A stretch of 64,000 bases of DNA from NCBI GenBank assembly GCA_021825585.1, contig JAKAGT010000009.1, positions 90,915 through 154,914 of the forward strand, read 5' to 3'. The notes under the pieces were generated by a model. That model saw nothing but the letters and a program-made list of their open reading frames with translations, had not been told where the DNA came from and did no database searches. This stretch comes from Bacteroidota bacterium. GTDB lineage: Bacteria; Bacteroidota; Ignavibacteria; Kryptoniales; JAKASW01. Each line of letters starts with the position of its first letter. Within the stretch, counting starts at the first letter, position 1. Positions 15,924 to 29,955 of the stretch are shown one piece after another. A program made the translations under genes and the position numbers.

Positions 15924-17687
15924 TCAAGATAAGCTTCCCTCATAAAGGTCCGTGTATTGTTTGTTGAAGTTATACAATTCATCATGCTTTCCGCTAACTA
16001 TGATCTTTCCGTTGTCCATTAATACCATCTTGTCAACACTCGTTATGGACGATAGTCGGTGACTGATAATTATTGTGGTTTTGTTCTCCATGATTTTTTC
16101 TGTGGCATCCCTGATCAGGCTTTCAGACTGGAGATCAATTGATGATGTAGCTTCATCCAGTACAAGTATCTTCGGATCGAGCAAAAAAACCCTCGCAATC
16201 GAAATCATTTGTTTCTGTCCGCCAGACAGTTGAAAGCCTCTCTCGCCCACTATGGTGTTATAGCCATCGGGCAGGTTGCGGATAAAATTGTCTGCATATG
16301 ACGCTCTGGCAGCTTCGCGCATTTCTTCGTCGCTGGCTTCAAGATTCGCATACCTGATGTTTTCAGCTATAGTTCCACTGAAAACATACGTCTCCTGGGG
16401 CACTATCCCTATTAACCTCCTAAGATCAGTGAGAGAATATTCCCGTATATCTTTACCATCAAGACAGATCCTCCCGCCTTGTGGCTCGTACAACCTCAAT
16501 AGCAGGTAGCCCAAAGTCGTCTTGCCAGACCCGGTTCTGCCAACTATCCCGATTCTGTCGCCGGGCCCAATGTGCAGGCTGAGATGTGCTATTCGAAAGT
16601 TGGCATCTTCTCCTCGATAGCAGAAACTAACATCCTGAAAGAGTACGTCCCCTTTGAACTTATCAGTTGCGCCTACAGTCAGAAGATGGCCTGGGTCGCC
16701 CTCAGCTTGTTGATCCAGTATGTCATATATTCTATCAATCGAGACGATGGCTGACTGAAGATTAGTCAGATATCCAAAGAGCTGAGTCGAAGGGCTGTAC
16801 AGCAGACTTAAGTATCCCACGAATCCGACCAATTGACCGGTTGTCATCCTTCCCGTGATTATGAAATACCCCGCGATTGAAAGAATCGCTATCGGTGCGA
16901 GGCTTTGAACAAATCCGTTGGCTGAACCAGCATAAGTGGATAGGAGCCAATTCTTCTTCGTAAGTTCAATCGCAGCAATTGACTTATCATTGAATCTTGT
17001 GATTTCGTAGTCCTCTTTTCGATAGGCCTTGATGCTCATAACCCCGCTGAGCATTTCTTGTAAGAATCCGCCTACCTTTGACCATTCCTCTTTCCTTGCA
17101 TTATTCACTTTCCTTATTTTGTAGTTAAACAATTTCTGGCTGACCAGGTAGAACGGAATGATTGCAAGAGCGATTGCGGCCAGCGTTCCATTGATCAGGA
17201 AAATCAGAGTTATCCCGAAAATCAAACTCAATAAGCTCTGTACCACGTTCAACGATGAAGTCCCCAATATTGAAACTGCGTCTTCGACGTCTTGAGAAAC
17301 TCGAGAAATGAGGTACCCAGTTTGCTTATCCGAGTAGTAACTAAGTGGAACATGCAACAAATGATTGAACATTCTGGCGCGGAGGGATAGCACTGAATAC
17401 AATTGGAAATTGTTAAGGAAGAAATTCTGGATAAAGCTCGAGAAGGTCTTAAGGAGGATAATTGCTGCCCAAGCAGCGATCAAAACGAAGAACAACTTAG
17501 CATCTCTAGCGGCTAGTGCTTTGTCCACAACCAACATGCTTAGCCATGGCATTGGAAGAGTGAGCAATAGGGAAAAGAGCATAAAGAAACCAGCCAGAAG
17601 AAAGTCTCTTTTCCTGTCCTTAAGAAATTTGACGAAGTTTCTGATTTTTCCCAGCTGTTTACCGTCCAATACATATTCAAAAAACAT
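15924..17687 (-). CDS. ABC exporter, fused permease + ATPase (MsbA/peptide-exporter type, no C39 peptidase domain)
   Basis: Six-TM N-half. Walker A GRTGSGKTT, signature LSGGQKQMISIARV, Walker B ILVLDEATSSID, H-loop IIISHRL. It starts 9 nt after the TonB-receptor stop. Confidence 0.9.
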   Translation of the reverse strand: MFFEYVLDGKQLGKIRNFVKFLKDRKRDFLLAGFFMLFSLLLTLPMPWLSMLVVDKALAARDAKLFFVLIAAWAAIILLKTFSSFIQNFFLNNFQLYSVLSLRARMFNHLLHVPLSYYSDKQTGYLISRVSQDVEDAVSILGTSSLNVVQSLLSLIFGITLIFLINGTLAAIALAIIPFYLVSQKLFNYKIRKVNNARKEEWSKVGGFLQEMLSGVMSIKAYRKEDYEITRFNDKSIAAIELTKKNWLLSTYAGSANGFVQSLAPIAILSIAGYFIITGRMTTGQLVGFVGYLSLLYSPSTQLFGYLTNLQSAIVSIDRIYDILDQQAEGDPGHLLTVGATDKFKGDVLFQDVSFCYRGEDANFRIAHLSLHIGPGDRIGIVGRTGSGKTTLGYLLLRLYEPQGGRICLDGKDIREYSLTDLRRLIGIVPQETYVFSGTIAENIRYANLEASDEEMREAARASYADNFIRNLPDGYNTIVGERGFQLSGGQKQMISIARVFLLDPKILVLDEATSSIDLQSESLIRDATEKIMENKTTIIISHRLSSITSVDKMVLMDNGKIIVSGKHDELYNFNKQYTDLYEGSLS

Positions 17688-17696
17688 TATCCACTC

Positions 17697-20234
17697 CTAG
17701 AAGGAATAACTCACACCTAGCGTAGGAATTAGGCCGTAAAGCAAGTTAGCCCTTCTCATTGGCCTCCCGTTGGCGTCATAGGTGTAAGTGTACGACAGAA
17801 CGTTGCGCCTGTTGAACAGGTTCATCACATCAAGATAGATTTGTAGCGGCTTATGGAACAGAGAATAGCCTTTTGCAATTTTTAAATCAACTCTTTCATA
17901 CGGGGGGTAATGGCTGGCATTTTTATTCCCCGCAACCCACAAGTACATCATTGCAGTTGAATCATAATGGCTCACATAGGGAGTGTATGCATAGCCGCTT
18001 CCATAGAAGAATCTAACGTCCAAAGACCATTTGTTTCCCAAATCAGAAATCACGGCAAGGGAAAGAGTGTGTGTTTGATCTGTGTACCGCGGATAATAAC
18101 CTTCTTTGCTGTCGAGCAATTTTTCTCGCGCAACCAAATAACTGTAGCTCAACAACAAATCTGTGTTGCCCAATGTTTCGTTGTACATTAGATCCATACC
18201 TGTCGCATATCCCTTGGCGTCATTTTGCCTCGTGCCGTATGCCAATTCACCGTCCGAAAGTCTGATCGTTGGAATCATGCTCGAATAATCTTTATAGTAG
18301 AACTCGCATCTGAGATCCATACCTCCTTCAATTTTCTTTTCAAATCCCAGGATGTACTGCACTGCTTTTTCGAAGGCCGTGTTAGTATCAGAGGCGACTG
18401 AGGACCTTAGTTGTTTGTATGTGGGAGGTTCATAATAGATCCCCCACGCAGCACGGATTGTAACTCCGAATGGCCCGGCGTACGACAAACTTGTTCGCGG
18501 CGCAAACCTAGTTTCTTTGTCCATGTCGAAGTAATCTAACCTTATTCCTGCATTAAACATTAGATTGCTTCCTATCTGCGACGTTTGTTGAAAGTACGCT
18601 GCTAAACTGTATGTCGAAGCATTTGTTATCACGGTGTCGTTATATGTCGGATCGGGAGGATAAAGCATGGTTGTTGTATCGGGGAAAAGCGTCACGTTTG
18701 TGGCCAGTATCTGGACTCCGTGCATATTCGGCGCGTCGTCATACAGTATTTTCTTTAGGGTGAATCCCCCGTCGAAATCGAGAAATTGTGACGATTGGAA
18801 ATTCAAGTCCTGGTCAAGACAGATCGTTTTTATCGAGAGGTCATCGATCAAGTTTCTATTATTTGATTGGTATGACCAAAATTGGGGGAATCCGCTGTAT
18901 GTGAGGCTGGTGCTATCCATCAGAATCGCGTGCTCATGTTCGACTTCATTGTAATATGAGGCCGTAGTCAGGGAAAGCAATTTGTCCGACAGCATATTGC
19001 TGGACCTGATCGACACCAAAGAATTCGTATAATTTGCAAGGAAGCTGGAATTGTGTACGGTGGTCTGAGATACGAGCGTCTGCTGTCCATAATAGTTCCA
19101 GTAGTACCCCAACCGGCTATAGCTATTTGAAGGAGATTGGTTAGCGTTGTCTCTTGAGAAAATCACATCTACCTTCAGCTTGTTTAAGTCGCTCAGATTG
19201 TAGTCCATCTGTCCTTGAACATCGTAGTAGTCCAAACTTATAGCAGAAGAGACGCTTAACATTCGCATCAGATAGTCAAGGTAACTTTGCCTAACACCTA
19301 TGATAAACGAACCGTTGCGGCTAACAGGTCCCTCAACCAAAACCGAGAAATCTATTAAGCTCAGATCGACCTTACCTTGGTAATTGTTCCTGTCACCGTC
19401 TTTGTAATCAATCTTCATCATGGAGCTCAGAGCATCTCCGTATTTGACGCTGAACCCTCCCGAACTGAAATCGATACTCTTAACCATGTCAATGTTAAAA
19501 ATCGACATGCTCCCACCTGCCAGTTCTTTTAAATGATCCGGGTTATAAACCTCGACTCCGTTTATCAAAATCAGGTTCTCGTCGGATGTCCCTCCGCGCA
19601 CATTTATCTTATTGCTTACTTCGTTGTCAACGCTTACCCCGGGCAATAACTGCACTGCACGTAGAGGATCTTTCGTCAAACCTGCTAGATCTCTAATCTG
19701 TTGGTTTTTGATTTCAGCCGAGCTTATTCTTCTGGGGTTTGCTTGCTCTGCATAAACGCTTACCTCCTGAAGCAAGAACCCAACAGGGGTCAGTTTAACA
19801 ACTACGGTAGAATCGTTTTTGTGAACGTCGAGCCTTTCTGTCCGGTAGCCGATATACGAGACCAACAGTGTAACTTCTTCATCAGGTAAGGAAATTCTAA
19901 ACTCACCTCTCTCATTTGTTTGAATCACTTTCTTGAAATTCTGAACTGTAACGGTTGCATAGACCAAACTCTGATTTGTCGTGGCATCGATCACTCTACC
20001 ACTGAGAACATGACTTGCTCCTTTACATAACCCTGGATTCAGAAAAAACAAAATGGAAACGACGAACATTCCGCCGCTAAAGAGATATGAAAAGAGCAAT
20101 CCGAGAATTCTGTATTCCTCCGTGGTCTTATAAGATATTGAGGGGTTGATCACGTGTATTACGCGTTTCACAGTAGAACCCGTAAGATCCTGCATACACC
20201 TTTGAAGTTCATTTTTGAATAAGCAGATCCGCAA
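17697..20234 (-). CDS. TonB-dependent receptor with N-terminal carboxypeptidase-regulatory-like domain
   Basis: GRVIDATTNQSLVYATVTVQN...GEFRISLPDEEVTLLVSYIGYRTERLDV (CarbopepD_reg-like). Plug motifs are LLPGVSVDNEVSNKINVRGGTSDENLILINGVEVYNP, followed by a long beta-barrel with a C-terminal ...LGVSYSF. The true start is uncertain; an internal Met giving MFVVSILFFLNPGLCKGAS is possible. Confidence 0.85.
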   Translation of the reverse strand: MRICLFKNELQRCMQDLTGSTVKRVIHVINPSISYKTTEEYRILGLLFSYLFSGGMFVVSILFFLNPGLCKGASHVLSGRVIDATTNQSLVYATVTVQNFKKVIQTNERGEFRISLPDEEVTLLVSYIGYRTERLDVHKNDSTVVVKLTPVGFLLQEVSVYAEQANPRRISSAEIKNQQIRDLAGLTKDPLRAVQLLPGVSVDNEVSNKINVRGGTSDENLILINGVEVYNPDHLKELAGGSMSIFNIDMVKSIDFSSGGFSVKYGDALSSMMKIDYKDGDRNNYQGKVDLSLIDFSVLVEGPVSRNGSFIIGVRQSYLDYLMRMLSVSSAISLDYYDVQGQMDYNLSDLNKLKVDVIFSRDNANQSPSNSYSRLGYYWNYYGQQTLVSQTTVHNSSFLANYTNSLVSIRSSNMLSDKLLSLTTASYYNEVEHEHAILMDSTSLTYSGFPQFWSYQSNNRNLIDDLSIKTICLDQDLNFQSSQFLDFDGGFTLKKILYDDAPNMHGVQILATNVTLFPDTTTMLYPPDPTYNDTVITNASTYSLAAYFQQTSQIGSNLMFNAGIRLDYFDMDKETRFAPRTSLSYAGPFGVTIRAAWGIYYEPPTYKQLRSSVASDTNTAFEKAVQYILGFEKKIEGGMDLRCEFYYKDYSSMIPTIRLSDGELAYGTRQNDAKGYATGMDLMYNETLGNTDLLLSYSYLVAREKLLDSKEGYYPRYTDQTHTLSLAVISDLGNKWSLDVRFFYGSGYAYTPYVSHYDSTAMMYLWVAGNKNASHYPPYERVDLKIAKGYSLFHKPLQIYLDVMNLFNRRNVLSYTYTYDANGRPMRRANLLYGLIPTLGVSYSF

Positions 20235-20257: not shown

Positions 20258-20488
20258 TTATCCGAAATTGATATAGCCGCATTCGCATCCCTGGCATATG
20301 TTGCATGTGTCGCATGCTAAGCCAACGTTACCGCAGCTGCAGGAAACGTTAGCAGCTCCACAGACGTACGTTTGGCATGTGCAACCGCCGCCACCACCAG
20401 TATCACTATTACAAGTGTTGCAGCACGGTGTCGTTGTGAATGTCTCAAGATAACTTACGTCATCATTTAACAATTCAATGCGTTTCAT
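20258..20488 (-). CDS. Cys-rich precursor-like peptide (76 aa, 13 Cys)
   Basis: MKRIELLNDDVSYLETFTTTP-CCNTCNSDTGGGGGCTCQTYVCGAANVSCSCGNVGLACDTCNICQGCECGYINFG. A strong RBS AAGGAGGTGA lies upstream of the ATG (read from the rc of 20489-20510). It sits between the rSAM maturase and the TBDR/ABC genes on the same strand. Confidence 0.75.
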   Translation of the reverse strand: MKRIELLNDDVSYLETFTTTPCCNTCNSDTGGGGGCTCQTYVCGAANVSCSCGNVGLACDTCNICQGCECGYINFG

Positions 20489-20765
20489 ACCTTCACCTCC
20501 TTTCGTAACCCAACTTTTTTGTTGGTCATTTTTGGATAGTGGTTCATCCCTGCGGATCTACAACATGATTAATAAACGGAAACCGAAAACGAAACCTGCA
20601 CACTTCATGAATCCCTGACGGTGTCACCACCAACACAAGCGTGGGCCGGATATAAATGGTTACTGCAATTGCACGTGGCCCTCGACACTCAGTGCCACGG
20701 ACCTTTCGAGATATCTTGTCGGTGTGTTTCATTATTCAATCGTCCTCTCACACAATTTTCATTTG

Positions 20766-22208
20766 TCATATTTGGCGCTCAGTTGGTATTTCCTTTCTTC
20801 CCCTTTTGTAAAAATGATAAAGGTTTTCGATTTCCGGTTTACTTGACTTAGCGATACTTGAATACACCATGATTGCTGTTTCAATAACGTGCTTAATCAA
20901 TTCACATCTCATGGGATTAGGAGTAGTCACGTCTTTGTAATAATCTTCGCTCACTGCGATGCAATCCCCGCCACAAAGAAACCTTGCCCAACACGAATTG
21001 CAAGGAACCCGAGAAAACACGTTTGTATTCACGTGTATTTCTTTTTCCCACCGTCGGTCGAAGGTTCCCGCCATAACATTTCCCATCCTGTAAGTACTAT
21101 TGACAAAGCGATGACAGGGGAAAATGTCACCGTTCGCTCCCACCGCTACATAGCCCCTTCCCGCTGCGCAGGAATAGAAATTCTTCCCATTCGCGTTCAG
21201 ATGCTTCAGGAACTTGATGATGTTACTATAACCAAAAAACTCATTTCGGGAAATCTTCCTCATCAGCTCATCTGCGATCAAGTCAATCCTATTTTCGAGG
21301 GCGCGATAATCCTCCGAGGATAGGAACCCTCTACCTGTTGTGCCTTCGGCAGTTTCAGTGTGGACAGAATAAAAACCCATAGCGAGAATATGCAGGATAT
21401 TATCAAAAGCCCTTTCAACTGAATTCGAGGTGATCGTCGTTCTCGCTGATGTTTGATCCTGCTTTGTCTTCCCGAGAAACAGAATGCTTTTCCCCTCAAC
21501 AGTCGGATACGATGGCCTTTTGTTCTTCAAGGGTCTGTTGACATTTTGCGTATCAGCGTCTCCATCTATACTGATTTGTATATTTATTCTCTCACGGTTA
21601 AAGTATTCAATTAGTTCTTCGTTAAGCAGGGTTCCATTTGTGGAAACTGAATAGCGGACCTCCTTATCTGCAGCTTTAGCTTTCTCATTTCCGTACAATA
21701 CCAACGCCTTCAAACCAACCATGTTTAACAATGGCTCTCCGCCGAAGAAGACCACGCCAACCCTTTTCGACTTTCCTGATTTTTCAATCAAGAAATCAAT
21801 GGTTTTCCTCCCCACTTCCGGTCTCATAAACCCTCTTTTCCCTCGGAAAGCACCCTGATCCGCGAAACAGTAGACGCATCGCATATTGCAATCTTGAGAT
21901 AAGATCAGGTCCATATTTCTTATTTCATATTCTGAATACTCAAAGGTGGGATCCTCAAACTCAAAAGGCTTTTCTGCGATAAGCCGTGATTCTTTCAGTT
22001 CAGTATAAGCGACCTCGATATCTTCCGCAGGGTAAGAATTTCTCAGCGCTGACAAGACTTCTTCCCTCTTTTTCAAGTTACTGGCGCCGAGGATTTGGAA
22101 GGCTAGTTCATCGACCCGAAATACTCGACACGTTTGCACGTCCAATAGCAGGTTCTTCCCGTTCTTCTTGAATAGGTGTAACTCCGGCAGGCAAGTTAGC
22201 TCATCCAC
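20766..22208 (-). CDS. Radical SAM / SPASM-domain peptide maturase (anSME-like) with N-terminal RRE-like segment
   Basis: CxxxCxxC at SQDCNMRCVYCF. Also GGEPLL, STNGTLL and ISIDG. The 7-Cys SPASM reads CAAGRGYVAVGANGDIFPCH...CNSCWARFLCGGDC...RCE. GTG start 22208 is preceded by AAGGAGG. It overlaps the upstream gene by 13 nt. Confidence 0.9.
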   Translation of the reverse strand: MDELTCLPELHLFKKNGKNLLLDVQTCRVFRVDELAFQILGASNLKKREEVLSALRNSYPAEDIEVAYTELKESRLIAEKPFEFEDPTFEYSEYEIRNMDLILSQDCNMRCVYCFADQGAFRGKRGFMRPEVGRKTIDFLIEKSGKSKRVGVVFFGGEPLLNMVGLKALVLYGNEKAKAADKEVRYSVSTNGTLLNEELIEYFNRERINIQISIDGDADTQNVNRPLKNKRPSYPTVEGKSILFLGKTKQDQTSARTTITSNSVERAFDNILHILAMGFYSVHTETAEGTTGRGFLSSEDYRALENRIDLIADELMRKISRNEFFGYSNIIKFLKHLNANGKNFYSCAAGRGYVAVGANGDIFPCHRFVNSTYRMGNVMAGTFDRRWEKEIHVNTNVFSRVPCNSCWARFLCGGDCIAVSEDYYKDVTTPNPMRCELIKHVIETAIMVYSSIAKSSKPEIENLYHFYKRGRKEIPTERQI

Positions 22209-24028
22209 AATACCTCCTTTAATTTTAAGGTCAGTAAGAGCAAATAATTGATTACCCTGACTGGAAAATTGAGAACAATTAAGAAGTGTTGCGAATTTAG
22301 TTCAAACTTTTGTGCCATAGCGAAATTCTTAACCGCATCCGAGAAGCTAAAATGATGCCTGGCCAGTTGCCGAACAAAGCTGAATCCATATTTTATGAGA
22401 AAGCTCAAACCCCAGGCCAAAATTGTATAGAGTGCGATAATCTTGGCGGCCGATTTTACCGGAAGACTTTTGGTCGGGATGAAATTCACCATGCTGTGAT
22501 TCTTAAAATGTGTTATCCTGCCAATTATTTCACTTGGCATAACCTCTTGGAAAAAGCCGTTGTCACCCTTTTCGTATATGAAACTGTTTCCCAGAAGCTT
22601 GATTCTTATGATCAGCCGGTGAGTTATGATCCTGTTGTTTCGTATGTAGGAAAAAATGTCGCCAGTTTTTAACTGGTTAGGATGCAAAAACTCGATTTTC
22701 AACTCTGTGCTCGATATAAACAAAGGAAACATGCTCTTGCCAACAGTAGACAAGACAACCGCATCTTTCGAGAGAGTATCCCCTTCATACTGAAACTGTG
22801 GGCTATGTCTTTTCAGAAAATCTATGTTCTTTTGCATAAGCGACCTAATTGCAGCATCCCTATCCGCGGATAGCAGCGCTGCTGCTTTAATGTTCCCTCT
22901 TATGTTGTCGCATCTTGTCTCAGGAATGCTTGCCGGACGGTGAAGATCATCCTCCCACTGAAGAATGCACCCACCACCACATATGGATATAGCCCAACAA
23001 GTCGTGCATTCTTTTCTGTCGTAAACCGCTGCTTTTGCAAATTGGTTCTGAATCGGCTTGTCATGGTCTGATTTTTCAATTGTCCCAGCCAGGTGCCTGG
23101 ACGACCTGATCAATCGGTGACACGGGAATATTTCCCCCTCTTTAGAAACAGCCCAGTACCATCTCCCTGCCCCGCAAGTAAAAGTCTTAGGAATGGAGGA
23201 GTTCAATGTTTCCGCATGACTTAGTATCTCAGTAATACTAAGTCCTAAACCGATACAATGGCCGTCATTCAAAATCTCGTTAAATAAATTACATTCCCCA
23301 TAACCAAACTGGATGAGCCTTATCCCTACCCGTCTTAATATATTGATGGTCTCCATTACCAAATTCTTTTGCATCCCCACATCTTCAATTCTGACACTAA
23401 CTACACGGTTAGAGGTTAATCGTCGCACAGCATCCGGTATTCTTCCCAATGCACCACGCAGATCGTCTCCGTACCTGAACAAGAGTTTCACTTCGTAGTT
23501 GTTCGACACAATAAAATCGGCCAATTGCCGGTCAACAAGTTCGATCGGGACTTGAAACAAAAACCGGTAGGAATGTTTTCTACTTCCTATCAATTCTTCA
23601 CAGAGGCGGTTCATTGAAGAAAGGATTGCCGGGTTCCTTAGGTTAAGAGTCAGATGAACCGCACGGCCAAATTGCGGCTCAAAGAAACCAACTGCTTTTT
23701 TGACAAGAGCAGTTGCACTTAAATCATTCTCAGGCAAATCCACATAAAGCGCGCTGACGAATAGAGGCTTCCATCTTATTTCGTCTTTCTTATTGATCCC
23801 GCCGAGGAACTCTTTGAGTTCATCTATGGCATCGTGCAACTCGCCAATATTGAATCTGCCTTCGAGGGTTGAGATTGCTCTATCTATATCCAAGGCCCCG
23901 CCTTCACTTAGATCCAGTAGTTCTTTAATTGCAGGGCTGAAACGAATCGTTGCAGGAAAGTCCGTCAGTATACCAACATTAACTTCTCTTGAGCCCGCGA
24001 TCTCGATATTGGGAATCTTAATCTTCAT
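22196..24028 (-). CDS. Pseudo-radical-SAM/SPASM protein fused to S26 (SipW/archaeal-type) signal-peptidase-like domain and C-terminal TM helices
   Basis: No CxxxCxxC anywhere in the 610 aa. The SPASM is intact: CGAGRWYWAVSKEGEIFPCH...CTTCWAISICGGGC...RCD (nt 22910-23176). The S26B-like block is VGKSMFPLF...LKTGDIFSY...RIITHRLI...IYEKGDNG (nt 22505-22759), followed by hydrophobic AAKIIALYTILAWGLSFLIKYGF and HFLIVLNFPVRVINYLLLLTL. Confidence 0.75.
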   Translation of the reverse strand: MKIKIPNIEIAGSREVNVGILTDFPATIRFSPAIKELLDLSEGGALDIDRAISTLEGRFNIGELHDAIDELKEFLGGINKKDEIRWKPLFVSALYVDLPENDLSATALVKKAVGFFEPQFGRAVHLTLNLRNPAILSSMNRLCEELIGSRKHSYRFLFQVPIELVDRQLADFIVSNNYEVKLLFRYGDDLRGALGRIPDAVRRLTSNRVVSVRIEDVGMQKNLVMETINILRRVGIRLIQFGYGECNLFNEILNDGHCIGLGLSITEILSHAETLNSSIPKTFTCGAGRWYWAVSKEGEIFPCHRLIRSSRHLAGTIEKSDHDKPIQNQFAKAAVYDRKECTTCWAISICGGGCILQWEDDLHRPASIPETRCDNIRGNIKAAALLSADRDAAIRSLMQKNIDFLKRHSPQFQYEGDTLSKDAVVLSTVGKSMFPLFISSTELKIEFLHPNQLKTGDIFSYIRNNRIITHRLIIRIKLLGNSFIYEKGDNGFFQEVMPSEIIGRITHFKNHSMVNFIPTKSLPVKSAAKIIALYTILAWGLSFLIKYGFSFVRQLARHHFSFSDAVKNFAMAQKFELNSQHFLIVLNFPVRVINYLLLLTLKLKEVLWMS

Positions 24029-24034
24029 TGTCTC

Positions 24035-26233
24035 TCAGAAATTGTCACACGGCTGGATGTAAGGGGTCTGCCTTACGTCCTGGTTTACGACACCAATTTT
24101 CCCAAACCGGCCTGCCACTGCCTCCTCAGCAAGCGTGCGGTAACGATCACAAAAGGATCTTTCGAATGTGCTTCTGCCGCTATCCAGGACCCTTTCCATG
24201 AAAAGACACCCGCCTGCACAGAGATTTATTAGCCAGCAATTACCGCACCGTGGTTTGCTCTTTACATCGTTCTCAACATATTCAATTTGCGATTTCAGCA
24301 ACCCGTCATCATTGCTTCCCATTGGGCTGATTCCCGCCTTTGCAAATAAGTGACAAGGATAGTATTTGCCGTCGGGAGAAATAACGACGTAGGATTTACC
24401 CGCATTGCAAAAATAATTGTACGGTTTATGGTCCATCAGCCTCCATTCAATTCCTCGAACAATGCCAATGTCCTTTCTGGGTGATTCGGCCGGAAGCAAC
24501 TCTTTGCCGAAGGGCTCTTCTGAACAAAACGGTTGAGTACATATTTGGAAATGATTAGATTGGGCCTCTCCAAAAGCTGGTGCCAAGTCTTTCAATAGTG
24601 CCTGATTTTCTGTCTGTGGAACAAGAAGGTTGATGACAAAACGTTTTTCATCTTCGCCCTCGAAATGGCTTCTAATTGATCTGAGGAGTTTTCCATAATC
24701 TCCATCTTTTGAAGTAAGCCCCGCACACAACGAGGCTGCATCAATATTTATACTGATACTTACGGTCTTAAATAACTTCCCTGAGAGTTTTTTTATGTAA
24801 TCACGGATCTTCACCAACAACTCTATTATCGATTCGTCTATAACATCTCCCAAATACAAATGGATAAACAAATCAGTTATGTAACCGGACCTTATAAACA
24901 AAAGATCAATCGCTTGCTTTGCTATCTCGAGCTGAATGACATCTGCATTACCGTTTCTATTATTCGATATTAGAATCCCTAGGCTTACCAGTACTTCTCC
25001 CCGGTTCTTGTCTTTTTCCCTTACAGATATCTCGTTCATCGATTTACCCGCTGATGACTGAACTTCTTTCAAAACCCCGATTCTTGTCAATTCGTTAAAC
25101 ATTTCAGTGATTTCATCAACACTCAATCCTAACTCTCTCTCCATGATATGAGAATCTTCCAAGGCTCTATGTCTTTCAAGAAATCGGACAAAATCGTACA
25201 TCCTCTGGTCTATCCTAGTCGCCAATTTGTGGTCGATTTGATAAAGAAAGAATTCAGCCCCCCTCTGAAACATGTGTATTTGCGAAAGGACTAAGCCCGG
25301 GTCAAATGTCTTTTCGATTGGAGAGAGTTGTGCTGACACGGAGCTTGTCAAAGGTTGCCTGCGATCTGTTTCAAGGAAATTTTCATTCTCTTTGATTTTC
25401 TTTTGAATGAAATTCTTTAATGCAAAACACTTAAGCTCCTCTGCCATGAGCACTGCCTTACTGTAATATTCGATGCTCTCGGAAAGGTGCTGTTCGATCA
25501 GGTCGCTTGCCTTCAGGTAGTTTTCAATCTGCTCCTGATCATCAGCTAAACCTAACCGGTCGTAAATCTTAAAAAGGAAATATGTATAGTTTTTGTTCGA
25601 AAAGTCTTCTCTCCAGTCCACCACATCGTCATACAGCTGGTATCCAATATGGTAATTACCCACCAACTCAGAGAAGGCCTCAATTTTTCCTTCTTCTTCT
25701 CCCGCGAGACATGCGCCTGCAGCAGAGATTTTCAATAAAGAAAACTTATGCCCGCAATTAATTAGATCCCTGTTTTCAAACCTTGCTACTTTCCCAAAGT
25801 GTAGTCGTTTTTCCCACAACGTCGCGACAACAAACTCGTTCAAGTATTTTTCGAAAAGAGCCCAGAAATAATCATTAGAGCGGAAAGCTCTCTGGTACTC
25901 TTTCATCCATTTATAATAGATGATGTTTGACACGAGGAGAGTTTCTGAAATTCTGGTCGGATCGCTTTCTTGCTGGTCTATGATCTTATCCTGCGCTAAT
26001 ATGTAGAGGGCTCCAAATAAATTGCCGAGAGAAAGTGCCCTTAGGATATTTAGGTCTATTTGTTTGGCAAACGACTCTGCGACCCAATAGGGGAAATCGA
26101 TTATTATATCCGGTTTAAGGGATATGAGTTTTCCTGAAGCGGTTGCGAAAACTCCGTCAAAGGCTAGCCTGTTCATTTCAATTCTGTACCGATCGCCAAC
26201 CAGTTTATTTTCATCACGAAGATTTATCATCAT
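24035..26233 (-). CDS. Three-part fusion: polyprenyl-synthase-like domain + RRE-like winged-helix segment + pseudo-radical-SAM/SPASM domain
   Basis: The N-domain pattern HKFSLLKISAAGACLAGEEEGKIEAFSELVGNYHIGYQLYDDVVDWRED matches the trans-IPPS KT...G.aFQ..DDxxD region, and the first motif is degenerate (ILAQDKIID). The middle segment RIDQRMYDFVRFLERHRALEDSHIMERELGLSVDEITEMFNELTRIGVLKE is PqqD/RRE-like. The C-terminal SPASM is CNAGKSYVVISPDGKYYPCH...CGNCWLINLCAGGC...FCD. There is no CxxxCxxC. I prefer start ATG 26233 (an ATGA overlap with the upstream stop) over the track start 26284. Confidence 0.7.
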   Translation of the reverse strand: MMINLRDENKLVGDRYRIEMNRLAFDGVFATASGKLISLKPDIIIDFPYWVAESFAKQIDLNILRALSLGNLFGALYILAQDKIIDQQESDPTRISETLLVSNIIYYKWMKEYQRAFRSNDYFWALFEKYLNEFVVATLWEKRLHFGKVARFENRDLINCGHKFSLLKISAAGACLAGEEEGKIEAFSELVGNYHIGYQLYDDVVDWREDFSNKNYTYFLFKIYDRLGLADDQEQIENYLKASDLIEQHLSESIEYYSKAVLMAEELKCFALKNFIQKKIKENENFLETDRRQPLTSSVSAQLSPIEKTFDPGLVLSQIHMFQRGAEFFLYQIDHKLATRIDQRMYDFVRFLERHRALEDSHIMERELGLSVDEITEMFNELTRIGVLKEVQSSAGKSMNEISVREKDKNRGEVLVSLGILISNNRNGNADVIQLEIAKQAIDLLFIRSGYITDLFIHLYLGDVIDESIIELLVKIRDYIKKLSGKLFKTVSISINIDAASLCAGLTSKDGDYGKLLRSIRSHFEGEDEKRFVINLLVPQTENQALLKDLAPAFGEAQSNHFQICTQPFCSEEPFGKELLPAESPRKDIGIVRGIEWRLMDHKPYNYFCNAGKSYVVISPDGKYYPCHLFAKAGISPMGSNDDGLLKSQIEYVENDVKSKPRCGNCWLINLCAGGCLFMERVLDSGRSTFERSFCDRYRTLAEEAVAGRFGKIGVVNQDVRQTPYIQPCDNF

Positions 26234-27195
26234 ATCAGATCCGTGGCAATATGCTTCTTGTACTTCTGCAGAGCTTCCAGACAAACTGCGGTGGTTATTT
26301 CCTCGGAACCGTCACCTCCAAAGGGATACAGTATTTCCATGGGCCAACATCCTCTGTCTCTGTCGCAACGGTCCATCAAATATTCTATCCCTCTTTCGAC
26401 ACATGTGCCGAATGCGGCACAGTCCATTAATGCTACAAGTGCAAATGCTGTCTCCAGGGTATTCCCCCACCCTCCGTTTTCATCCTGGACAAATCTTAAG
26501 TAGCGAACAATTGAGCCTCGTGCCTCTTGAAGCTCATCCGCTCTATCGACGGCGAATGCCCTGGAAACAAAACACGAAAATATTTGAGGTGAAAAGTACC
26601 ATCTTTGCGAGTTCTGCGTTTGAAGATCGTGAGACTCTCTGTTCAACCAATCGATCACTTCTTTTGTCAGAAAAGATTTATGCATCAAACTAAACAGCCA
26701 AAGGATATTGGCATTGACGGCCGCGTCGAAATCATTCTCCGAGATTGGTGAACCACCAACCCAGGTGCGGAATAGTTTTGTCACTTCATCCCTCTGGCCA
26801 AGTAGCTTTTCAGGGACCGCGAGATCGTTCATGACCCCTAGCTCATAAAGCACGGAAAGACAACACGACGTTGTATCCAGATCCAATGGCAGCTCTGAAC
26901 CGATTCCAAAGTACCTCCAATAGCTCTCTTCTTTGTTCTGAATAATAAACTCGATCGCTTTCTGCTTTATGCCGTTCAACCTGTTGGAATCGTCCAAGAA
27001 GGAAATTGAGTGGAGGACAAGAGCAGTTGGAAAAACTGTGCTACGGTAAGTTTTCATTAATTGGGAATTACTGACGAAAGAATAGTTTGCAATTTCCCCC
27101 CATGGCAGTTGATTGTCATAGATGAAATCTATCCCCTGATCAATCAATGCTTGGACGGTCTCAATCGATGCGCAACGATCACTGTTCCCAAACAC
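26230..27195 (-). CDS. Prenyltransferase / squalene-hopene-cyclase-repeat (alpha/alpha-toroid) protein
   Basis: QW-like repeat FVQDENGGWGNTLETAFALVALMD. LPLDLDTTSCCLSVL resembles the class II cyclase DxDDTA region, here as DxDT. GTG start 27195 is preceded by AGGAGA. Confidence 0.7.
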   Translation of the reverse strand: MFGNSDRCASIETVQALIDQGIDFIYDNQLPWGEIANYSFVSNSQLMKTYRSTVFPTALVLHSISFLDDSNRLNGIKQKAIEFIIQNKEESYWRYFGIGSELPLDLDTTSCCLSVLYELGVMNDLAVPEKLLGQRDEVTKLFRTWVGGSPISENDFDAAVNANILWLFSLMHKSFLTKEVIDWLNRESHDLQTQNSQRWYFSPQIFSCFVSRAFAVDRADELQEARGSIVRYLRFVQDENGGWGNTLETAFALVALMDCAAFGTCVERGIEYLMDRCDRDRGCWPMEILYPFGGDGSEEITTAVCLEALQKYKKHIATDLI

Positions 27196-27337: not shown

Positions 27338-27973
27338 TCAAGCCGTGAAAGTGTCACGAAAATAAATCGCAAATCTTATCAGTTCAGACAGCCCGCTCAA
27401 GTGCGTTTTTTCTATTATGTTTGTTCGATGACAGTCAACCGTTCTCTTGCTGATATAAAGTCGCAAACCTATTTCTTTACTTGAGTATCCTAAGCCAATA
27501 AGTCCAAGGATTTCCTTTTCTCTAGCTGACAAAGTCTGAATTTTATCATTCCATGGCCTATTCTTACCCGTTTCATCAGTCTTAGATTCATCGCATCGTT
27601 GGTTGCAGAGTGCCCATATCGGTCTCGGTATTGATTCTGGTCGCCCGCTAATCCGAAGTCCTCTTCTACAGAGAACAGTTACCCGTTTGTCGTCAACTTC
27701 AGGACAGCCTCCATAAAGACACAATTCAGATAAGACTAAGAGCTGAGCGAAATCGTATGGGAGGATCCTATTGATGGTGTTCACGATACTCTGATAATTC
27801 CGGTCGTATGATAAATTCAGGAAAACAACTTCATTCCGGTCTTTGTTAAGGTCGCTGACAGAGCGTAGAACTTTTATTACACGATATCCGTTTGCCACCA
27901 AGTATCCCCTTATTGCCTCCGCAACTATTTCATTCTCATCGATAAGAATTATGCTTATGTTTTTCCTCGACAC
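27338..27973 (-). CDS. LuxR/FixJ-type transcription regulator with atypical receiver-like N-domain
   Basis: C-terminal HTH LSAREKEILGLIGLGYSSKEIGLRLYISKRTVDCHRTNIIEKTHL. The N-terminal ISIILIDENEIVAEAIRGYL is receiver-like. The expected phospho-Asp position after beta-3 reads VVFLNLS. Confidence 0.8.
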   Translation of the reverse strand: MSRKNISIILIDENEIVAEAIRGYLVANGYRVIKVLRSVSDLNKDRNEVVFLNLSYDRNYQSIVNTINRILPYDFAQLLVLSELCLYGGCPEVDDKRVTVLCRRGLRISGRPESIPRPIWALCNQRCDESKTDETGKNRPWNDKIQTLSAREKEILGLIGLGYSSKEIGLRLYISKRTVDCHRTNIIEKTHLSGLSELIRFAIYFRDTFTA

Positions 27974-28055: not shown

Positions 28056-28691
28056 TTACCCAGTGCAAAAGGTCTTGAGTTCACAACTCGCAAACCGGTA
28101 AATGTATATCTTTGCAATTGTGGGAGCACTATGCAGCCCGGTCACAAGGAAAAGAGTCGGTCCCATGGCACCACGAGAAAATGTGGAGGGGTTCGGAAAC
28201 ATGGTTCGCCCGCAGCAATTCTTGTTTCTGGATTTTTGGCCCACCATGTTGCACAAGGAGGGAACAAAGAGAGAGATAACAGAGCACGACGCCGCGACCT
28301 GCAGTGGAGGGCCTCTCCTCATCACTGTGTCATTCGTGCTGACGTTTGTTGCCAGGAACCCATACCCCGTCACTTCGTCAACATTGTGAAGGCCAATGAG
28401 ACCATTCCCATCTACGACACCCCCTGAAGGATCCGGGTTCAACTTAGGAGGATGACGGAGTGCAGGAAGCAAGATATCTCTCCATACTTCTCCGTTAGGG
28501 GGTAAAGGATTAGGAGTCCATGTTGGGGATAGGATAATAATCACCTTGGCTAGGCTCCGGCACGGAAGTGCCTCAGCTTGAGAAAATTCCCCACAAACGG
28601 TTAAGCCCAATATTAGAAACAACAGAACATGAGAGAAGACGCCTCGTTTTCCCAGTCCAATTTCCCTTTCGATCAGCATCTCTTTGTGCAC
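28056..28691 (-). CDS. Hypothetical protein with N-terminal hydrophobic segment (weak call)
   Basis: 211-aa ORF with the signal-like stretch VFSHVLLFLILGLTVCGEFSQAEA. No recognisable motif, and it may be non-coding. Confidence 0.3.
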   Translation of the reverse strand: MHKEMLIEREIGLGKRGVFSHVLLFLILGLTVCGEFSQAEALPCRSLAKVIIILSPTWTPNPLPPNGEVWRDILLPALRHPPKLNPDPSGGVVDGNGLIGLHNVDEVTGYGFLATNVSTNDTVMRRGPPLQVAASCSVISLFVPSLCNMVGQKSRNKNCCGRTMFPNPSTFSRGAMGPTLFLVTGLHSAPTIAKIYIYRFASCELKTFCTG

Positions 28692-29364: not shown

Positions 29365-29955
29365 ATGGTTACCAGCGATTGGAAGCTTCTCGACTCGTAT
29401 CTGCAGCATTGCGGTTACGAGAGACACCTTGGTGCCTTAAGCCTTAAAGCCTACGGGATTGATCTCAGGCAATTCCTCCTCTTCATAAGCGGAAGATCGG
29501 ATTTCCATCAGGTTGACAAAGAGACACTCAAGGCTTACTTGAAACACCTGTTCGGCGTTCCACTCAGAGAGTCAAGCGTAAAAAGGAAGATTACCTGCCT
29601 CAAGGGTTTCTTCGCATTCCTCGAAGCTGAGCAAGTCATTGAGGAAAGTCCCTTCCACAAAATGAAATTCTCGATCAAGATCCCGAGGAGATTGCCTGAA
29701 GTCATGAACATAAGGGATGTGACAGAGCTTATCACCCTTGCGAAGCAGAACCTTGAAAAGAGGAAATCTACGACTCGCGAAAAGATTGATCTATCATCCT
29801 GCGTTGAACACGGAGATCTTGTGGCTTTTCAGGATCTCATCATTATTGAGCTTCTTTTTGCAACCGGCATGAGGGTGAAAGAACTATCAAGCCTCAATGT
29901 GGGCGACATAGACCTCGTCAGAAGATTAAACGATATAGGCTCCTGCACGGGATGA
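29365..29955 (+). pseudogene. Tyrosine recombinase (XerC/D-like integrase), 3'-truncated
   Basis: N-terminal SAM-like core-binding domain (LSLKAYGIDLRQFLLFI..., VKRKITCLKGFFAFLEAEQVI). The catalytic domain begins (ELLFATGMRVKELSSLNVGDIDL, containing the first catalytic Arg) and then ends after about 20 more codons. The H-R-Y part is missing. Confidence 0.7.

Follow-up and report, generated by a model that had tools for sequence, protein, structure and literature searches.

A degenerate radical-SAM/SPASM maturase fused to an S26B-type peptidase domain, a putative RiPP leader peptidase of Bacteroidota

LppS is a SipW-like peptidase that acts as an RRE-dependent RiPP leader peptidase, and mutation of its residues S29, H68 and D93 abolishes activity (Popov et al., Nat Commun 2026, PMC13381572). 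Sec11, archaeal signal peptidase I and Bacillus SipW (MEROPS S26B) carry the box B serine in SM(x)P, the box D His-Arg pair, the box E Asp in GDN, an acidic residue six positions past that Asp, a clan SF fold and a hydrophobic helix after the catalytic domain, all of which are found again in the protein described here. Among the SPASM proteins of RiPP clusters, the grasp-with-SPASM maturase (TIGR04193), the CXXX-repeat maturase (TIGR04119) and the pseudo-rSAM protein of the GG-Bacteroidales system (TIGR04150) are families that we take to lack a radical-SAM domain; we know of no peptidase domain in them. The window (the whole stretch of 64,000 nucleotides that was analysed) encodes a 610-aa protein in which an RRE-like domain, a pseudo-radical-SAM barrel, a SPASM domain, an S26B peptidase domain and a hydrophobic helical hairpin follow one another.

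Architecture and origin of the N-terminal scaffold

The features of the 610-aa protein are as follows.

22196..24028, minus strand: whole ORF, 610 aa, ATG to TAA
23795..24028, minus strand: RRE-like domain (winged-helix, PqqD/CteB-type, leader-binding), residues 1-78; hhalign to the N-terminus of the neighbouring maturase, and a Foldseek CteB alignment covering the domain
23243..23767, minus strand: degenerate radical-SAM partial TIM barrel, residues 88-262; hhalign against the rSAM gene product, Foldseek to CteB, TigE, anSME and SuiB
22799..23233, minus strand: SPASM domain, residues 266-410; TIGR04085 and CteB (5wgg)
22469..22771, minus strand: S26B (Sec11/SipW/LppS-type) serine peptidase domain, residues about 420-520; profile, alignment and model matches
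22733-22735, 22619-22621, 22616-22618, 22562-22564 and 22544-22546, minus strand: codons of the peptidase residues S432, H470, R471, D489 and E495, respectively
22202..22465, minus strand: two long hydrophobic helices, residues 522-609, a putative C-terminal membrane hairpin; Kyte-Doolittle and AlphaFold

The initial annotation had given the ORF as 22196-24028, which was borne out, without stating its strand. It had also read the product as a SPASM protein without a radical-SAM motif that is fused to a Ser/His peptidase of the S26B/SipW-like kind and ends in a hydrophobic anchor, and profiles and alignments uphold this domain reading. A Pfam scan of the 610-aa protein alone returned zero matches. 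Its AlphaFold model (pLDDT 82.5, pTM 0.80) superimposes on CteB over approximately 455 columns (Foldseek, E 6e-15). A near-identical protein (P0001, differing at residue 187) is present on 7 contigs, and the fusion was found again in independent assemblies, at identities as low as 17%; therefore, the fusion is not an assembly artefact. It is nevertheless rare, being found in about 17 clusters in a set of 1.84 billion representative proteins and in 3 of 185,579 species genomes, all of them Bacteroidota.

Residues 1-407 align end to end with residues 1-469 of the active maturase encoded next door (hhalign, probability 100%, E 3.4e-42), of which the scaffold is a paralogue. In the profile alignment of the two, a 16-residue deletion near residues 97-103 stands where the CxxxCxxC loop belongs. 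It had been claimed that the protein contains no CxxxCxxC anywhere; a motif search of the whole sequence confirmed this and found no looser C-x(2-7)-C-x2-C either, the cysteines lying at positions 143, 246, 258, 285, 303, 341, 344, 350, 354 and 373. The motif is likewise absent from all 24 family members searched, and none of the fusion proteins found has it. Since the loop is deleted, canonical cleavage of SAM is precluded.

The SPASM domain is preserved. It scores 49.1 bits against TIGR04085 (cutoff 27) and matches CteB (5wgg) at E 6e-16, and the seven cysteines listed in the initial annotation (C285...C303, C341-x2-C344-x5-C350-x3-C354, C373) are all present exactly as described. Across 19 sequences C303, C341, C344, C350 and C373 are invariant and C285 is nearly so. 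The Bacteroidota clade retains C354, as does P0012, but the nine other clade-2 sequences checked have a different residue there. Short relatives have the same N-terminal RRE-like domain fused straight to the peptidase and nothing more (hhalign probability 91%, E 1.2e-6; homology of the short-form N-termini tested on P0024 and P0130). The N-terminal 410 residues are thus a former CteB/SCIFF-type rSAM/SPASM maturase that has lost the loop of the SAM-cleaving cluster. The scaffold keeps the RRE and, in the Bacteroidota clade, all Cys ligands of two auxiliary [4Fe-4S] clusters, which it may still bind. The earlier idea of a leader-recognition scaffold is strengthened by the alignment of residues 1-407 with an active maturase and by a CteB-like fold that includes the N-terminal RRE.

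The S26B domain and its membrane segment

The peptidase part shows the motifs G430-K-S432-M-F-P, T-H470-R and E-K-G-D489-N. Taken singly, the 610-aa sequence matches TIGR02228 (archaeal-type signal peptidase I) at E 1.6e-6 and 28 bits, under the curated cutoff of 51.85, and all 19 of 19 family members match this model (best E 3.2e-15). A profile of the domain matches SEC11A/SEC11C at E 1e-8, with S432 on S56 and H470 on H96; in the SEC11A alignment SM(x)P falls on S56, HR on H96-R97 and KGDN on D116 (residue roles from bioRxiv 10.1101/2020.11.11.378711). The match to LppS has a probability of 98.6% and E 7.6e-16 at only about 20% identity (hhalign), with S432, H470 and E495 on S29, H68 and D93. 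It can be seen that the Ser/His pattern proposed in the initial annotation is beyond chance, and that S432 and H470 fall on the catalytic Ser and His of both SEC11A and LppS.

Conservation follows the same residues. S432, M433, P435, H470, R471, E486, K487, G488 and D489 are invariant in 19-20 sequences of 16-62% identity, and the Ser, the His, the Arg and the Asp of GD remain invariant in 24 sequences, down to 16-17% identity and including short forms without the scaffold. The residue six positions past the Asp of GD is acidic in 9/9 members of the clade of the window protein. Position 495 is Glu, not Asp, and neither the second clade nor the short forms have an acidic residue there, which indicates that the triad is not family-wide. 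The isolated domain model has the clan SF fold and matches LexA-C, SipA, SpsB and UmuD' at probability 1.0 and TM 0.55-0.66, with weak E-values of 2e-3 to 3e-2 (Foldseek). Because the best structural matches are LexA (S24), S24 and S26 are not separable by fold alone. Pfam Peptidase_S24 is matched by 14/16 family members.

Two hydrophobic helices had been noted after the peptidase block, and both methods agree with this: residues 526-548 and 581-601 have Kyte-Doolittle means of 1.85-1.89, and AlphaFold places long helices at 522-557 and 574-609. The 610-aa protein begins with neither a TM segment nor a signal peptide, and about 420 residues precede the peptidase. With an Fe-S domain upstream and no N-terminal TM segment, the peptidase would have to face the cytoplasm, unlike that of SipW and Sec11. 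The loop between the helices and both flanks of the hydrophobic segments are basic, and clade 2 has one helix followed by a polybasic tail, which makes the membrane topology ambiguous. The consequence of a cytoplasm-facing topology had been overlooked in the initial annotation.

Gene cluster, precursors and possible function

The gene lies in a cluster transcribed from the minus strand.

27338..27973, minus strand: LuxR/GerE-type regulator, head of the cluster
26230..27195, minus strand: 321-aa protein with weak squalene-cyclase/prenyltransferase-type repeat matches, conserved in the cluster
24035..26233, minus strand: second pseudo-maturase, 732 aa from ATG (749 aa from an upstream TTG)
20766..22208, minus strand: active rSAM/SPASM maturase, 480 aa, CNMRCVYC at residue 107
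20258..20488, minus strand: precursor peptide, 76 aa, 13 Cys, reading MKRIELLNDDVSYLET up to the predicted cleavage site and FTTTPCCNTCNSDTGGGGGC... after it
17697..20234, minus strand: TonB-dependent receptor (CarboxypepD_reg, Plug, barrel), conserved in the cluster
15924..17687, minus strand: MsbA-like ABC exporter, 587 aa, without a C39 peptidase domain

In the second pseudo-maturase, a DDxxD domain of about 320 aa stands at the N-terminus, ahead of an RRE, a radical-SAM barrel whose loop is likewise deleted, and a SPASM domain. The active maturase, whose start is overlapped by the final 13 nt of the 610-aa ORF, is SCIFF/PapB/QhpD-like, yet it stays under every equivalog cutoff. A canonical rSAM/SPASM maturase gene lies directly downstream in 6/6 loci (the window, L001, L005, L006, L007 and L010), the count comprising loci in which the downstream gene is fully readable; the L004 contig stops before the motif. 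Cys-rich precursors with a common leader (M-K-H/R-I-E-L-L-N...) adjoin the gene in four Bacteroidota-type clusters (the window, L001, L005 and L007), and their position is the same in all four, with two copies in L001. In L007 the same slot of the same kind of cluster is taken by a 231-aa protein made up of a short N-terminal extension, an S26 domain and a hydrophobic tail, which suggests that the peptidase is the conserved function of the slot. The scan of the conserved cluster genes and flanking ORFs turned up no second protease. The initial annotation had placed the gene next to the exporter; however, the rSAM, precursor and TonB-dependent receptor genes stand between, and the ABC gene is three genes away.

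We consider it probable, at roughly 60%, that the 610-aa protein serves a Bacteroidota RiPP pathway for a Cys-rich, probably thioether-crosslinked peptide as its dedicated leader peptidase, acting in cis, guided by its RRE, tethered to the membrane and facing the cytoplasm. The dead maturase module would serve as a substrate-docking scaffold, in which the RRE grips the conserved leader while the Cys-rich core sits in the barrel/SPASM cavity. Ser432 would be the nucleophile and His470 the base, Arg471 and Asp489 would pair in a structural salt bridge, and Glu495 takes the place of the triad Asp. By analogy with the cut of LppS after F-E-T, the S26B domain may cleave the leader most likely after the Thr that follows the leader motif, which is invariant in the precursors (Y-L-E-T16/F in that of the window, the slash marking the cut); five precursors, of which three are closely related, underlie this predicted site. 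The active site would lie on the cytoplasmic side, with the C-terminal helical hairpin in the inner membrane, and the product might be passed to the MsbA-like exporter. One could speculate that leader removal is thereby coupled to export.

The domain may be an active peptidase that cuts elsewhere than at the leader: in the Gly run (..S-D-T-G-G-G-G-G/C..), at a C-terminal follower, or in trimming of the core after export-competent folding, the leader being removed elsewhere. S26 enzymes classically favour small residues at -1 and -3, a GGGGG(G) run follows CCNxCNS in the three closest precursors, and the Thr site proposed above stands on analogy only. This seems unlikely, as the L005 and L007 precursors have no Gly run while keeping the Thr, the cluster encodes no second protease among the genes scanned, and the protein bears its own RRE; the homologous LppS, which needs an RRE, cleaves at the leader/core border (PMC13381572). 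Alternatively, the S26-like domain could be a non-catalytic peptide-binding or docking module, as in SipA, a homologue of signal peptidases in Streptococcus pyogenes, and the whole protein a membrane-bound chaperone holding the precursor for the maturase or exporter. SipA (4n31) is indeed among the best structural matches, the N-terminal part is certainly dead as a radical-SAM enzyme, and a pseudo-enzyme theme runs through the cluster. Invariance of the Ser, His, Arg and Asp even in the short forms would be unexpected for a pure binding module, and these residues align on ones essential in LppS and SEC11A, so that we regard this option as quite improbable.

The structural matches to LexA C-terminal domains and UmuD', together with the Peptidase_S24 matches, raise the further idea of a self-cleaving module, whose autoproteolysis would free the pseudo-maturase from its membrane anchor or otherwise be regulatory. 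It is very doubtful: the base is a His in T/C-H-R with GDN downstream, the S26B signature, not the Lys of S24/S26A; sequence profiles group the domain with SEC11, archaeal SPase, SipW and LppS; no conserved internal self-cleavage site of the Ala-Gly or Cys-Gly type was noticed; and the genomic setting is a RiPP cluster. Least credible of all is the reading as a standard type I signal peptidase that works on Sec substrates at the outer face of the inner membrane and is fused by chance to a decaying gene. One homologue is annotated 'signal peptidase I' by JGI, and C-terminal hydrophobic segments occur in SipW as well; against this, some 420 residues of folded Fe-S protein come first, where no TM segment or signal peptide is found, the fusion and its synteny with the rSAM maturase are kept from 62% to 16-17% identity, and the SPASM Cys and RRE of the scaffold are conserved. 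Preferably, then, the protein may be viewed as a RiPP leader peptidase. The initial annotation had called this a novel way of coupling RiPP leader removal to export, but the principle of a SipW-like, RRE-dependent leader peptidase was already published with LppS (May 2026, Popov et al., PMC13381572). Most likely, the 610-aa protein is a rare fused variant of the peptidase type first described in 2026; the novelty lies in the RiPP class, in the phylum of the host and in the dead maturase to which the peptidase is fused.

Comparison with known systems

With LppS, from clusters of Bacillota for linear polyphosphorylated peptides (PMC13381572), the protein shares a homologous catalytic domain including the three aligned residues, the lack of an N-terminal TM segment (LppS acts on a cytoplasmic precursor), a C-terminal hydrophobic helix after the catalytic domain, assistance by an RRE and a RiPP cluster with an MsbA-like exporter. 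Window-type precursors read x-E/D/T-T at the putative site, similar to F-E-T. In contrast, LppS is a 151-aa protein with a discrete RRE partner, LppB, whereas here the RRE is fused and a dead rSAM barrel plus SPASM is inserted before the peptidase. The host is Bacteroidota, and the cluster has neither an HprK kinase nor an NTP transferase but an rSAM maturase, a second pseudo-maturase and a TonB-dependent receptor; the precursor is Cys-rich instead of a phosphorylated Gly/Asn-rich peptide, and two clear hydrophobic segments replace one weak one.

From Sec11, archaeal signal peptidase I and SipW the protein differs in the absence of an N-terminal anchor, in a catalytic domain that is probably cytoplasmic, in a presumed substrate other than a Sec signal peptide, in its score under the TIGR02228 cutoff and in Glu at the triad position. 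The CteB/SCIFF-type thioether (sacti/ranthipeptide) maturases (5wgg, TIGR03974) have the same RRE, partial TIM barrel and SPASM with the seven-Cys motif; here the CxxxCxxC loop is deleted, a C-terminal peptidase and membrane anchor are added, and the score is 63 bits against a cutoff of 425. TIGR04193, TIGR04119 and TIGR04150 resemble it in having the SPASM Cys motif without CxxxCxxC, in RiPP clusters beside true rSAM enzymes. The 610-aa protein matched none of the three at E <= 0.01, and TIGR04119 was matched by only 9/19 relatives, weakly and over the SPASM part.

Two further systems are comparable in function. In fused lasso-peptide B proteins (RRE B1 plus the cysteine leader peptidase B2; PMC13381572 and general knowledge) an RRE also brings the leader/core junction to a peptidase and can be fused with it in one polypeptide, but the peptidase is a transglutaminase-like Cys protease of a fold unrelated to the Ser/His S26B domain, and there is neither an inserted pseudo-maturase nor a membrane anchor. 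PCATs, with a C39 domain fused to the exporter, would be functional analogues, removing leaders at the cytoplasmic side of the inner membrane within an export operon. They carry a Cys protease on the transporter and cut after Gly-Gly, whereas here the peptidase sits on the recognition scaffold and the transporter has no C39 domain.

The fusion gene and its cluster

The 610-aa fusion protein is encoded on the minus strand, from an ATG at 24028 to a stop codon at 22196-22198. Its start lies 7 nt past the stop of the preceding gene, and its 3' end overlaps the GTG start of the next gene by 13 nt, an operon-like arrangement of the gene with both neighbours. Cysteines are found at residues 143, 246, 258, 285, 303, 341, 344, 350, 354 and 373. 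The seven-Cys SPASM motif of radical-SAM (rSAM)/SPASM maturases of the CteB/SCIFF, PapB and QhpD type is present, and a motif search of the whole protein detected neither CxxxCxxC nor the looser C-x(2-7)-C-x2-C. The peptidase motifs are S432 within GKSMFP, H470 within THR and D489 within EKGDN. The Kyte-Doolittle mean exceeds 1.5 solely at residues 526-548 and 581-601; the hydropathy scan showed no hydrophobic segment N-terminal of residue 526, and there is no signal peptide. Every element of the initial annotation (ORF, cysteines, missing motif, peptidase motifs, two hydrophobic segments) was thus found in the sequence, and its domain reading, SPASM without the rSAM motif joined to an S26B-type peptidase, proved right in the profile and model analyses.

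All genes of the cluster lie on the minus strand, in the order LuxR-type regulator, 321-aa protein, 732/749-aa protein, fusion protein, 480-aa rSAM/SPASM maturase, 76-aa peptide, TonB-dependent receptor and ABC exporter.

Genes of the cluster (window positions)
17697-20234, minus strand, TonB-dependent receptor with an N-terminal CarboxypepD_reg domain; conserved in the window and in the related loci L001, L005 and L007
20258-20488, minus strand, 76-aa precursor peptide
20766-22208, minus strand, 480-aa active rSAM/SPASM maturase, CNMRCVYC at residue 107
22196-24028, minus strand, fusion protein
24035-26233, minus strand, second pseudo-maturase, 732 aa from ATG, 749 aa from an upstream TTG (26284)
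26230-27195, minus strand, 321-aa protein, conserved at the cluster head in L001, L005 and L007

This order is repeated in L001 (61% identity) and L005 (25-27% identity), and also in L007, where a 231-aa short form occupies the slot of the fusion protein. In all six loci in which the gene downstream of the fusion is readable in full, it is a canonical rSAM maturase; L004, whose contig stops before the motif, is outside this count. The exporter is MsbA-like (587 aa) and leaves no room for a C39 domain, and the scan of conserved cluster genes and flanking ORFs turned up no further protease. The TonB-dependent receptor sits between precursor and exporter in the window, L001 and L005, and the L007 contig ends inside it. 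Metal-binding peptides can be taken up again by their producers, as in methanobactin systems. Placed beside a peptide with 10-13 cysteines, the receptor could serve the re-uptake of a metal-binding peptide or passage through the outer membrane.

The 732-aa neighbour is itself a pseudo-maturase. Its residues 333-726 align with the entire active maturase (E 1.5e-16); the cluster loop is again missing and the SPASM cysteines are still there. N-terminal of them lies a conserved domain (about 320 aa) in which YQLxDDxxDW(K/R)ED holds a conserved DDxxD; comparison of this domain with polyprenyl diphosphate synthases gave insignificant matches only (E 0.27-1.4). In L001 the counterpart of this gene is split into ORFs of 81 and 653 aa. 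The 321-aa protein gave sub-threshold matches to the alpha-alpha toroid repeats of squalene-hopene cyclases and prenyltransferases, which, together with the adjoining DDxxD domain, may be a sign that the peptide receives a lipid or prenyl group.

Several other features of the region were recorded. A 211-aa ORF at 28056-28691 has no family match whatsoever. The biosynthetic cluster is flanked, just outside it, by mobile-element debris: an ORF for a truncated tyrosine integrase (29365-29955, plus strand; 196 aa, comprising the N-terminal SAM-like domain and the beginning of the catalytic one) and a group II intron reverse transcriptase/maturase (30397-31875, minus strand; 492 aa). Proteins with a T9SS C-terminal sorting domain (Por_Secre_tail) are encoded at 13079-14119 and 32459-35734, both on the minus strand; one of them is a 1091-aa PLD-domain protein. 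These sorting domains confirm that the window comes from Bacteroidota.

A maturase paralogue without the SAM cluster loop

The SPASM model TIGR04085 (NCBIfam) scores 49.1 bits on the fusion protein, against a cutoff of 27, and the sole phmmer match in the PDB is CteB (5wgg; residues 282-364, E 6e-16). Equivalogs TIGR03974, NF047865 and TIGR03906 reach 52-64 bits against cutoffs of 340-453, on the SPASM part only. The rSAM-less SPASM families TIGR04193, TIGR04119 and TIGR04150 did not match the protein at E <= 0.01; weak, SPASM-only matches to TIGR04119 were seen in nine of 19 relatives. With a family profile, residues 1-407 align with residues 1-469 of the active maturase (probability 100%, E 3.4e-42), and the CNMRCVYC segment of the latter falls opposite a 16-residue gap. 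CxxxCxxC was absent from all 24 relatives, as was C-x2-7-C-x2-C. An alternative three-Cys site is excluded, because C246 alone is conserved in the barrel region of the family alignment. It had been asked whether a CxxxCxxC-equivalent might emerge once a sequencing error was corrected; such an error was rejected, since the deletion of the loop is conserved and independent assemblies contain the fusion as well. The protein is thus a paralogue of a CteB/SCIFF-like maturase; it has lost the SAM cluster loop and kept the RRE (an N-terminal leader-binding-type domain), the barrel and the SPASM cysteines.

An AlphaFold2 model built on 19 sequences (mean pLDDT 82.5, pTM 0.80) is consistent with this origin. 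In a Foldseek search of the PDB, the full model matched CteB (5wgg/5why) with E 6e-15 over about 455 columns, at a TM score (target) of 0.64-0.69, followed by TigE, SuiB, anSME and ChlB, all maturases with RRE, rSAM and SPASM parts. The protein is thus predicted to have the RRE, partial TIM barrel and SPASM fold of CteB-type maturases. The signal-peptidase homologue SipA appears lower among the matches of the full model, in which the maturase part dominates.

The S26B-type peptidase domain and the fusion family

A Pfam scan of the single sequence gave no peptidase match; for the single protein, the domain is detectable via NCBIfam and family profiles only. The archaeal-type signal peptidase I model TIGR02228 matches residues 421-519 with E 1.6e-6 and 28.1 bits, under its curated cutoff of 51.85, and it is matched by 19 of 19 full-length or partial relatives (best E 3.2e-15), seven of which also match the SipW model. 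Pfam Peptidase_S24 (clan SF) is matched by 14 of 16 relatives. A domain profile built from 16 relatives matches human SEC11A and SEC11C (E 1e-8) and places SM(x)P on S56, HR on H96-R97 and KGDN on D116 of SEC11A. In the human protein the catalytic triad is S56/H96/D122, with a structural salt bridge D116-R97 (bioRxiv 10.1101/2020.11.11.378711).

The alignment to SipW/Sec11 proposed in the initial annotation therefore put the catalytic residues where they were expected. S432, the nucleophile position of box B (S-M-x-P), falls on SEC11A S56 and on S29 of LppS, a SipW-like RiPP leader peptidase of Bacillota, and is invariant in 19-20 sequences. H470-R471 (box D), also an invariant pair, falls on H96-R97, with H470 on LppS H68; the general base is thus His, as in S26B, rather than the Lys of S26A and S24. 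D489 of box E (G-D-N) is invariant across aligned relatives. E495, at GD+6, occupies the position of SEC11A D122 and LppS D93, and this residue is Glu or Asp in nine of nine members of the Bacteroidota-type clade to which the protein belongs, whereas it is not acidic in clade 2 or in short forms. Unlike the S26B enzymes Sec11, archaeal SPase I and SipW, the fusion protein lacks an N-terminal transmembrane anchor: what precedes its peptidase domain is a CteB-like Fe-S protein that has no signal peptide.

Modelled in isolation (pLDDT 80.4), the domain matched LexA C-domains (top), SipA, SpsB and UmuD' in Foldseek with probability 1.0 and TM scores of 0.55-0.66, at E-values of only 2e-3 to 3e-2. 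The proposed structural check thus returned a CteB-like fold for the N-terminal part and, with weak E-values, a clan SF fold as the predicted fold of the peptidase domain. Because Foldseek of the isolated domain cannot tell S24 from S26, its assignment to S26B rests on the sequence profiles and the His base.

The family is very rare. A word-indexed search of 5.8 billion proteins returned only four clusters, and an exhaustive profile search of 1.84 billion representatives gave nine matches below 1e-30; of the best 150 representatives in the latter search, about 17 cover SPASM as well as peptidase. The fusion occurs in three of 185,579 species genomes, all three of them Bacteroidota MAGs. The Ser of SM-x-P, the His-Arg pair and E-K-G-D are kept in 24 of 24 relatives.

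A second group, clade 2 (514-656 aa), has the same architecture, with one C-terminal helix and a polybasic tail. It includes P0018, P0029, P0050, P0053, P0076, P0124, P0033, P0028, P0051 and P0015.

Clade-2 fusion genes (positions in the locus)
L006, 8001-9761
L010, 546-2285

The fourth Cys of CxxCx5Cx3C is replaced in nine of ten clade-2 members checked, P0012 being the exception; T, S or P stands in its place, and GD+6 is not acidic. These two changes suggest that clade 2 is losing its auxiliary cluster II site and uses the Ser/His dyad alone. In the intergenic region upstream of P0018 (L006, 7650-7800) a unit of ~20 nt (TTTCCACCGCCCGGGGACCC-like) is repeated about seven times in tandem-like fashion; the opposite strand of this region would encode a Gly-rich repeat peptide.

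Four short relatives (172-280 aa) have neither barrel nor SPASM domain. In two of them, P0024 and P0130, an N-terminal domain homologous to residues 4-73 of the fusion protein is joined straight to the peptidase (hhalign probability 91%, E 1.2e-6). These short forms mark RRE, S26B peptidase and hydrophobic tail as the constant core of the family, with the dead maturase an insertion between RRE and peptidase.

Proposed leader processing and comparison with LppS

The precursor in the window has 76 aa and 13 cysteines (sequence MKRIELLNDDVSYLETFTTTPCCNTCNSDTGGGGGCTCQTYVCG...). It and its counterparts have in common the leader M-K-H/R-I-E/K-L-L-N and, some 16 residues in, an invariant Thr, which stands within Y-L-E-T|F, Y-L-E-T|L, F-P-T-T|Y and V-L-D-T|Y. 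The Gly run was also considered as the place of cleavage but, lacking conservation, was put behind the Thr site. L001 carries two precursors in this stretch, and the spacer between rSAM gene and precursor in the window (20489-20765, minus strand) is a decayed copy of the first precursor gene, from which ~90 nt covering the leader were lost and in which the remainder has diverged. The 62-aa ORF at 20544-20732, considered as a second precursor, falls in this remnant and was rejected; it is unlikely to be a gene. Conservation is high over the 60 nt preceding the surviving precursor, which include AAAGGAGGTGA ahead of the ATG.

With the five modules identified, their residues placed on known enzymes, the SAM loop deleted, and the gene syntenic with an active maturase and Cys-rich precursors, we propose, with a probability of roughly 0.6, that the fusion protein is a membrane-tethered leader peptidase facing the cytoplasm. 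Its RRE would bind the precursor leader, the dead barrel and SPASM cavity would hold the core peptide, and the fused Ser/His(/Glu) peptidase would cut after T16 (T16/F17). A cytoplasmic location seems probable, since an Fe-S protein of 520 residues that lacks a signal has no means of crossing the membrane, and the C-terminal helices may anchor it in the inner membrane close to the exporter. The membrane topology itself is ambiguous, as basic residues flank these helices on both sides and clade 2 has a polybasic tail.

Other roles were weighed against leader cleavage at T16. The peptidase might cut the precursor at some other site, or the domain might have a non-catalytic docking role like that of SipA; it might cleave itself in the manner of LexA, or act as an ordinary signal peptidase. 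All four fit less well than leader cleavage to the invariant catalytic residues, to the fusion with an RRE and to the genomic context.

It is also conceivable, though we hold it unlikely, that the dead maturase is an Fe-S-dependent checkpoint rather than a passive tether, and that the same adaptor was reused in the 732-aa protein. The auxiliary-cluster cysteines are kept in the Bacteroidota-type clade despite the loss of SAM chemistry. In the manner of the open Aux I site of CteB, the auxiliary clusters might then bind thiolates of free cysteines in the core, and only a peptide in the right crosslinking state would have its leader cut; in the 732-aa neighbour the pseudo-maturase adaptor would deliver another catalytic domain (DDxxD, isoprenoid-synthase-like). 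If so, duplicated and inactivated rSAM/SPASM enzymes would be substrate-specific adaptors for tailoring and processing enzymes, a general modular principle.

Attempts to reconstitute RiPP clusters often lack one step, the removal of the leader. A natural in-cis fusion of RRE and peptidase would be useful for engineering and for cleavage-site prediction. The protein also clearly exemplifies how a radical-SAM maturase can become a pseudo-enzyme while its SPASM cysteines are kept, so that the role of SPASM clusters without SAM chemistry becomes testable, and the cluster flags an uncharacterised, very rare family of Cys-rich peptides with its own TonB-dependent receptor. No description of a SPASM-peptidase fusion was found in the literature searched, nor were relevant reports on radical SAM with S26, on SPASM and TonB in Bacteroidetes, or on pseudo-rSAM or stand-alone SPASM proteins.

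The closest known system is LppS, which removes the leader of linear polyphosphorylated peptides (LPP) in Bacillota (Popov et al., Nat Commun 2026, PMC13381572). LppS cleaves after F(-3)-E(-2)-T(-1), only when the precursor is presented by the discrete RRE LppB, and S29A, H68A and D93A are inactive; its authors consider peptidases of this kind previously undescribed in RiPP pathways, and mention neither radical-SAM clusters nor fusions nor Bacteroidota (PMC13381572). Using the LppS sequence from Supplementary Data 1 of that paper, hhalign against our domain profile gave a probability of 98.6% (E 7.6e-16), pairing S432 with S29, H470 with H68, D489 with D87 and E495 with D93 (Glu for Asp). LppS, like the domain described here, has no N-terminal transmembrane segment, in contrast to a housekeeping SipW-like protein of the same table. 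Association with an RRE appears common to both, in cis in the fusion protein and discrete, as LppB, for LppS, and the Thr sites of our precursors resemble the F-E-T| of the LppS substrate. The window cluster is not an LPP cluster, because no HprK-like kinase or NTP transferase is found among its genes and its leader, MKxIELLN...[LP][EDT]T, lacks the YxxP of the LPP leader (YxxP...FET). The initial annotation had suggested that such a fusion beside the exporter would couple leader removal to export in a novel way. Since LppS was published, the concept is no longer categorically new; the fused architecture, the host phylum and the associated peptide class are. S26B-type leader peptidases entered the literature only in 2026, and for just one peptide class of Bacillota, and the same type of peptidase has been recruited independently into Bacteroidota radical-SAM peptide pathways.
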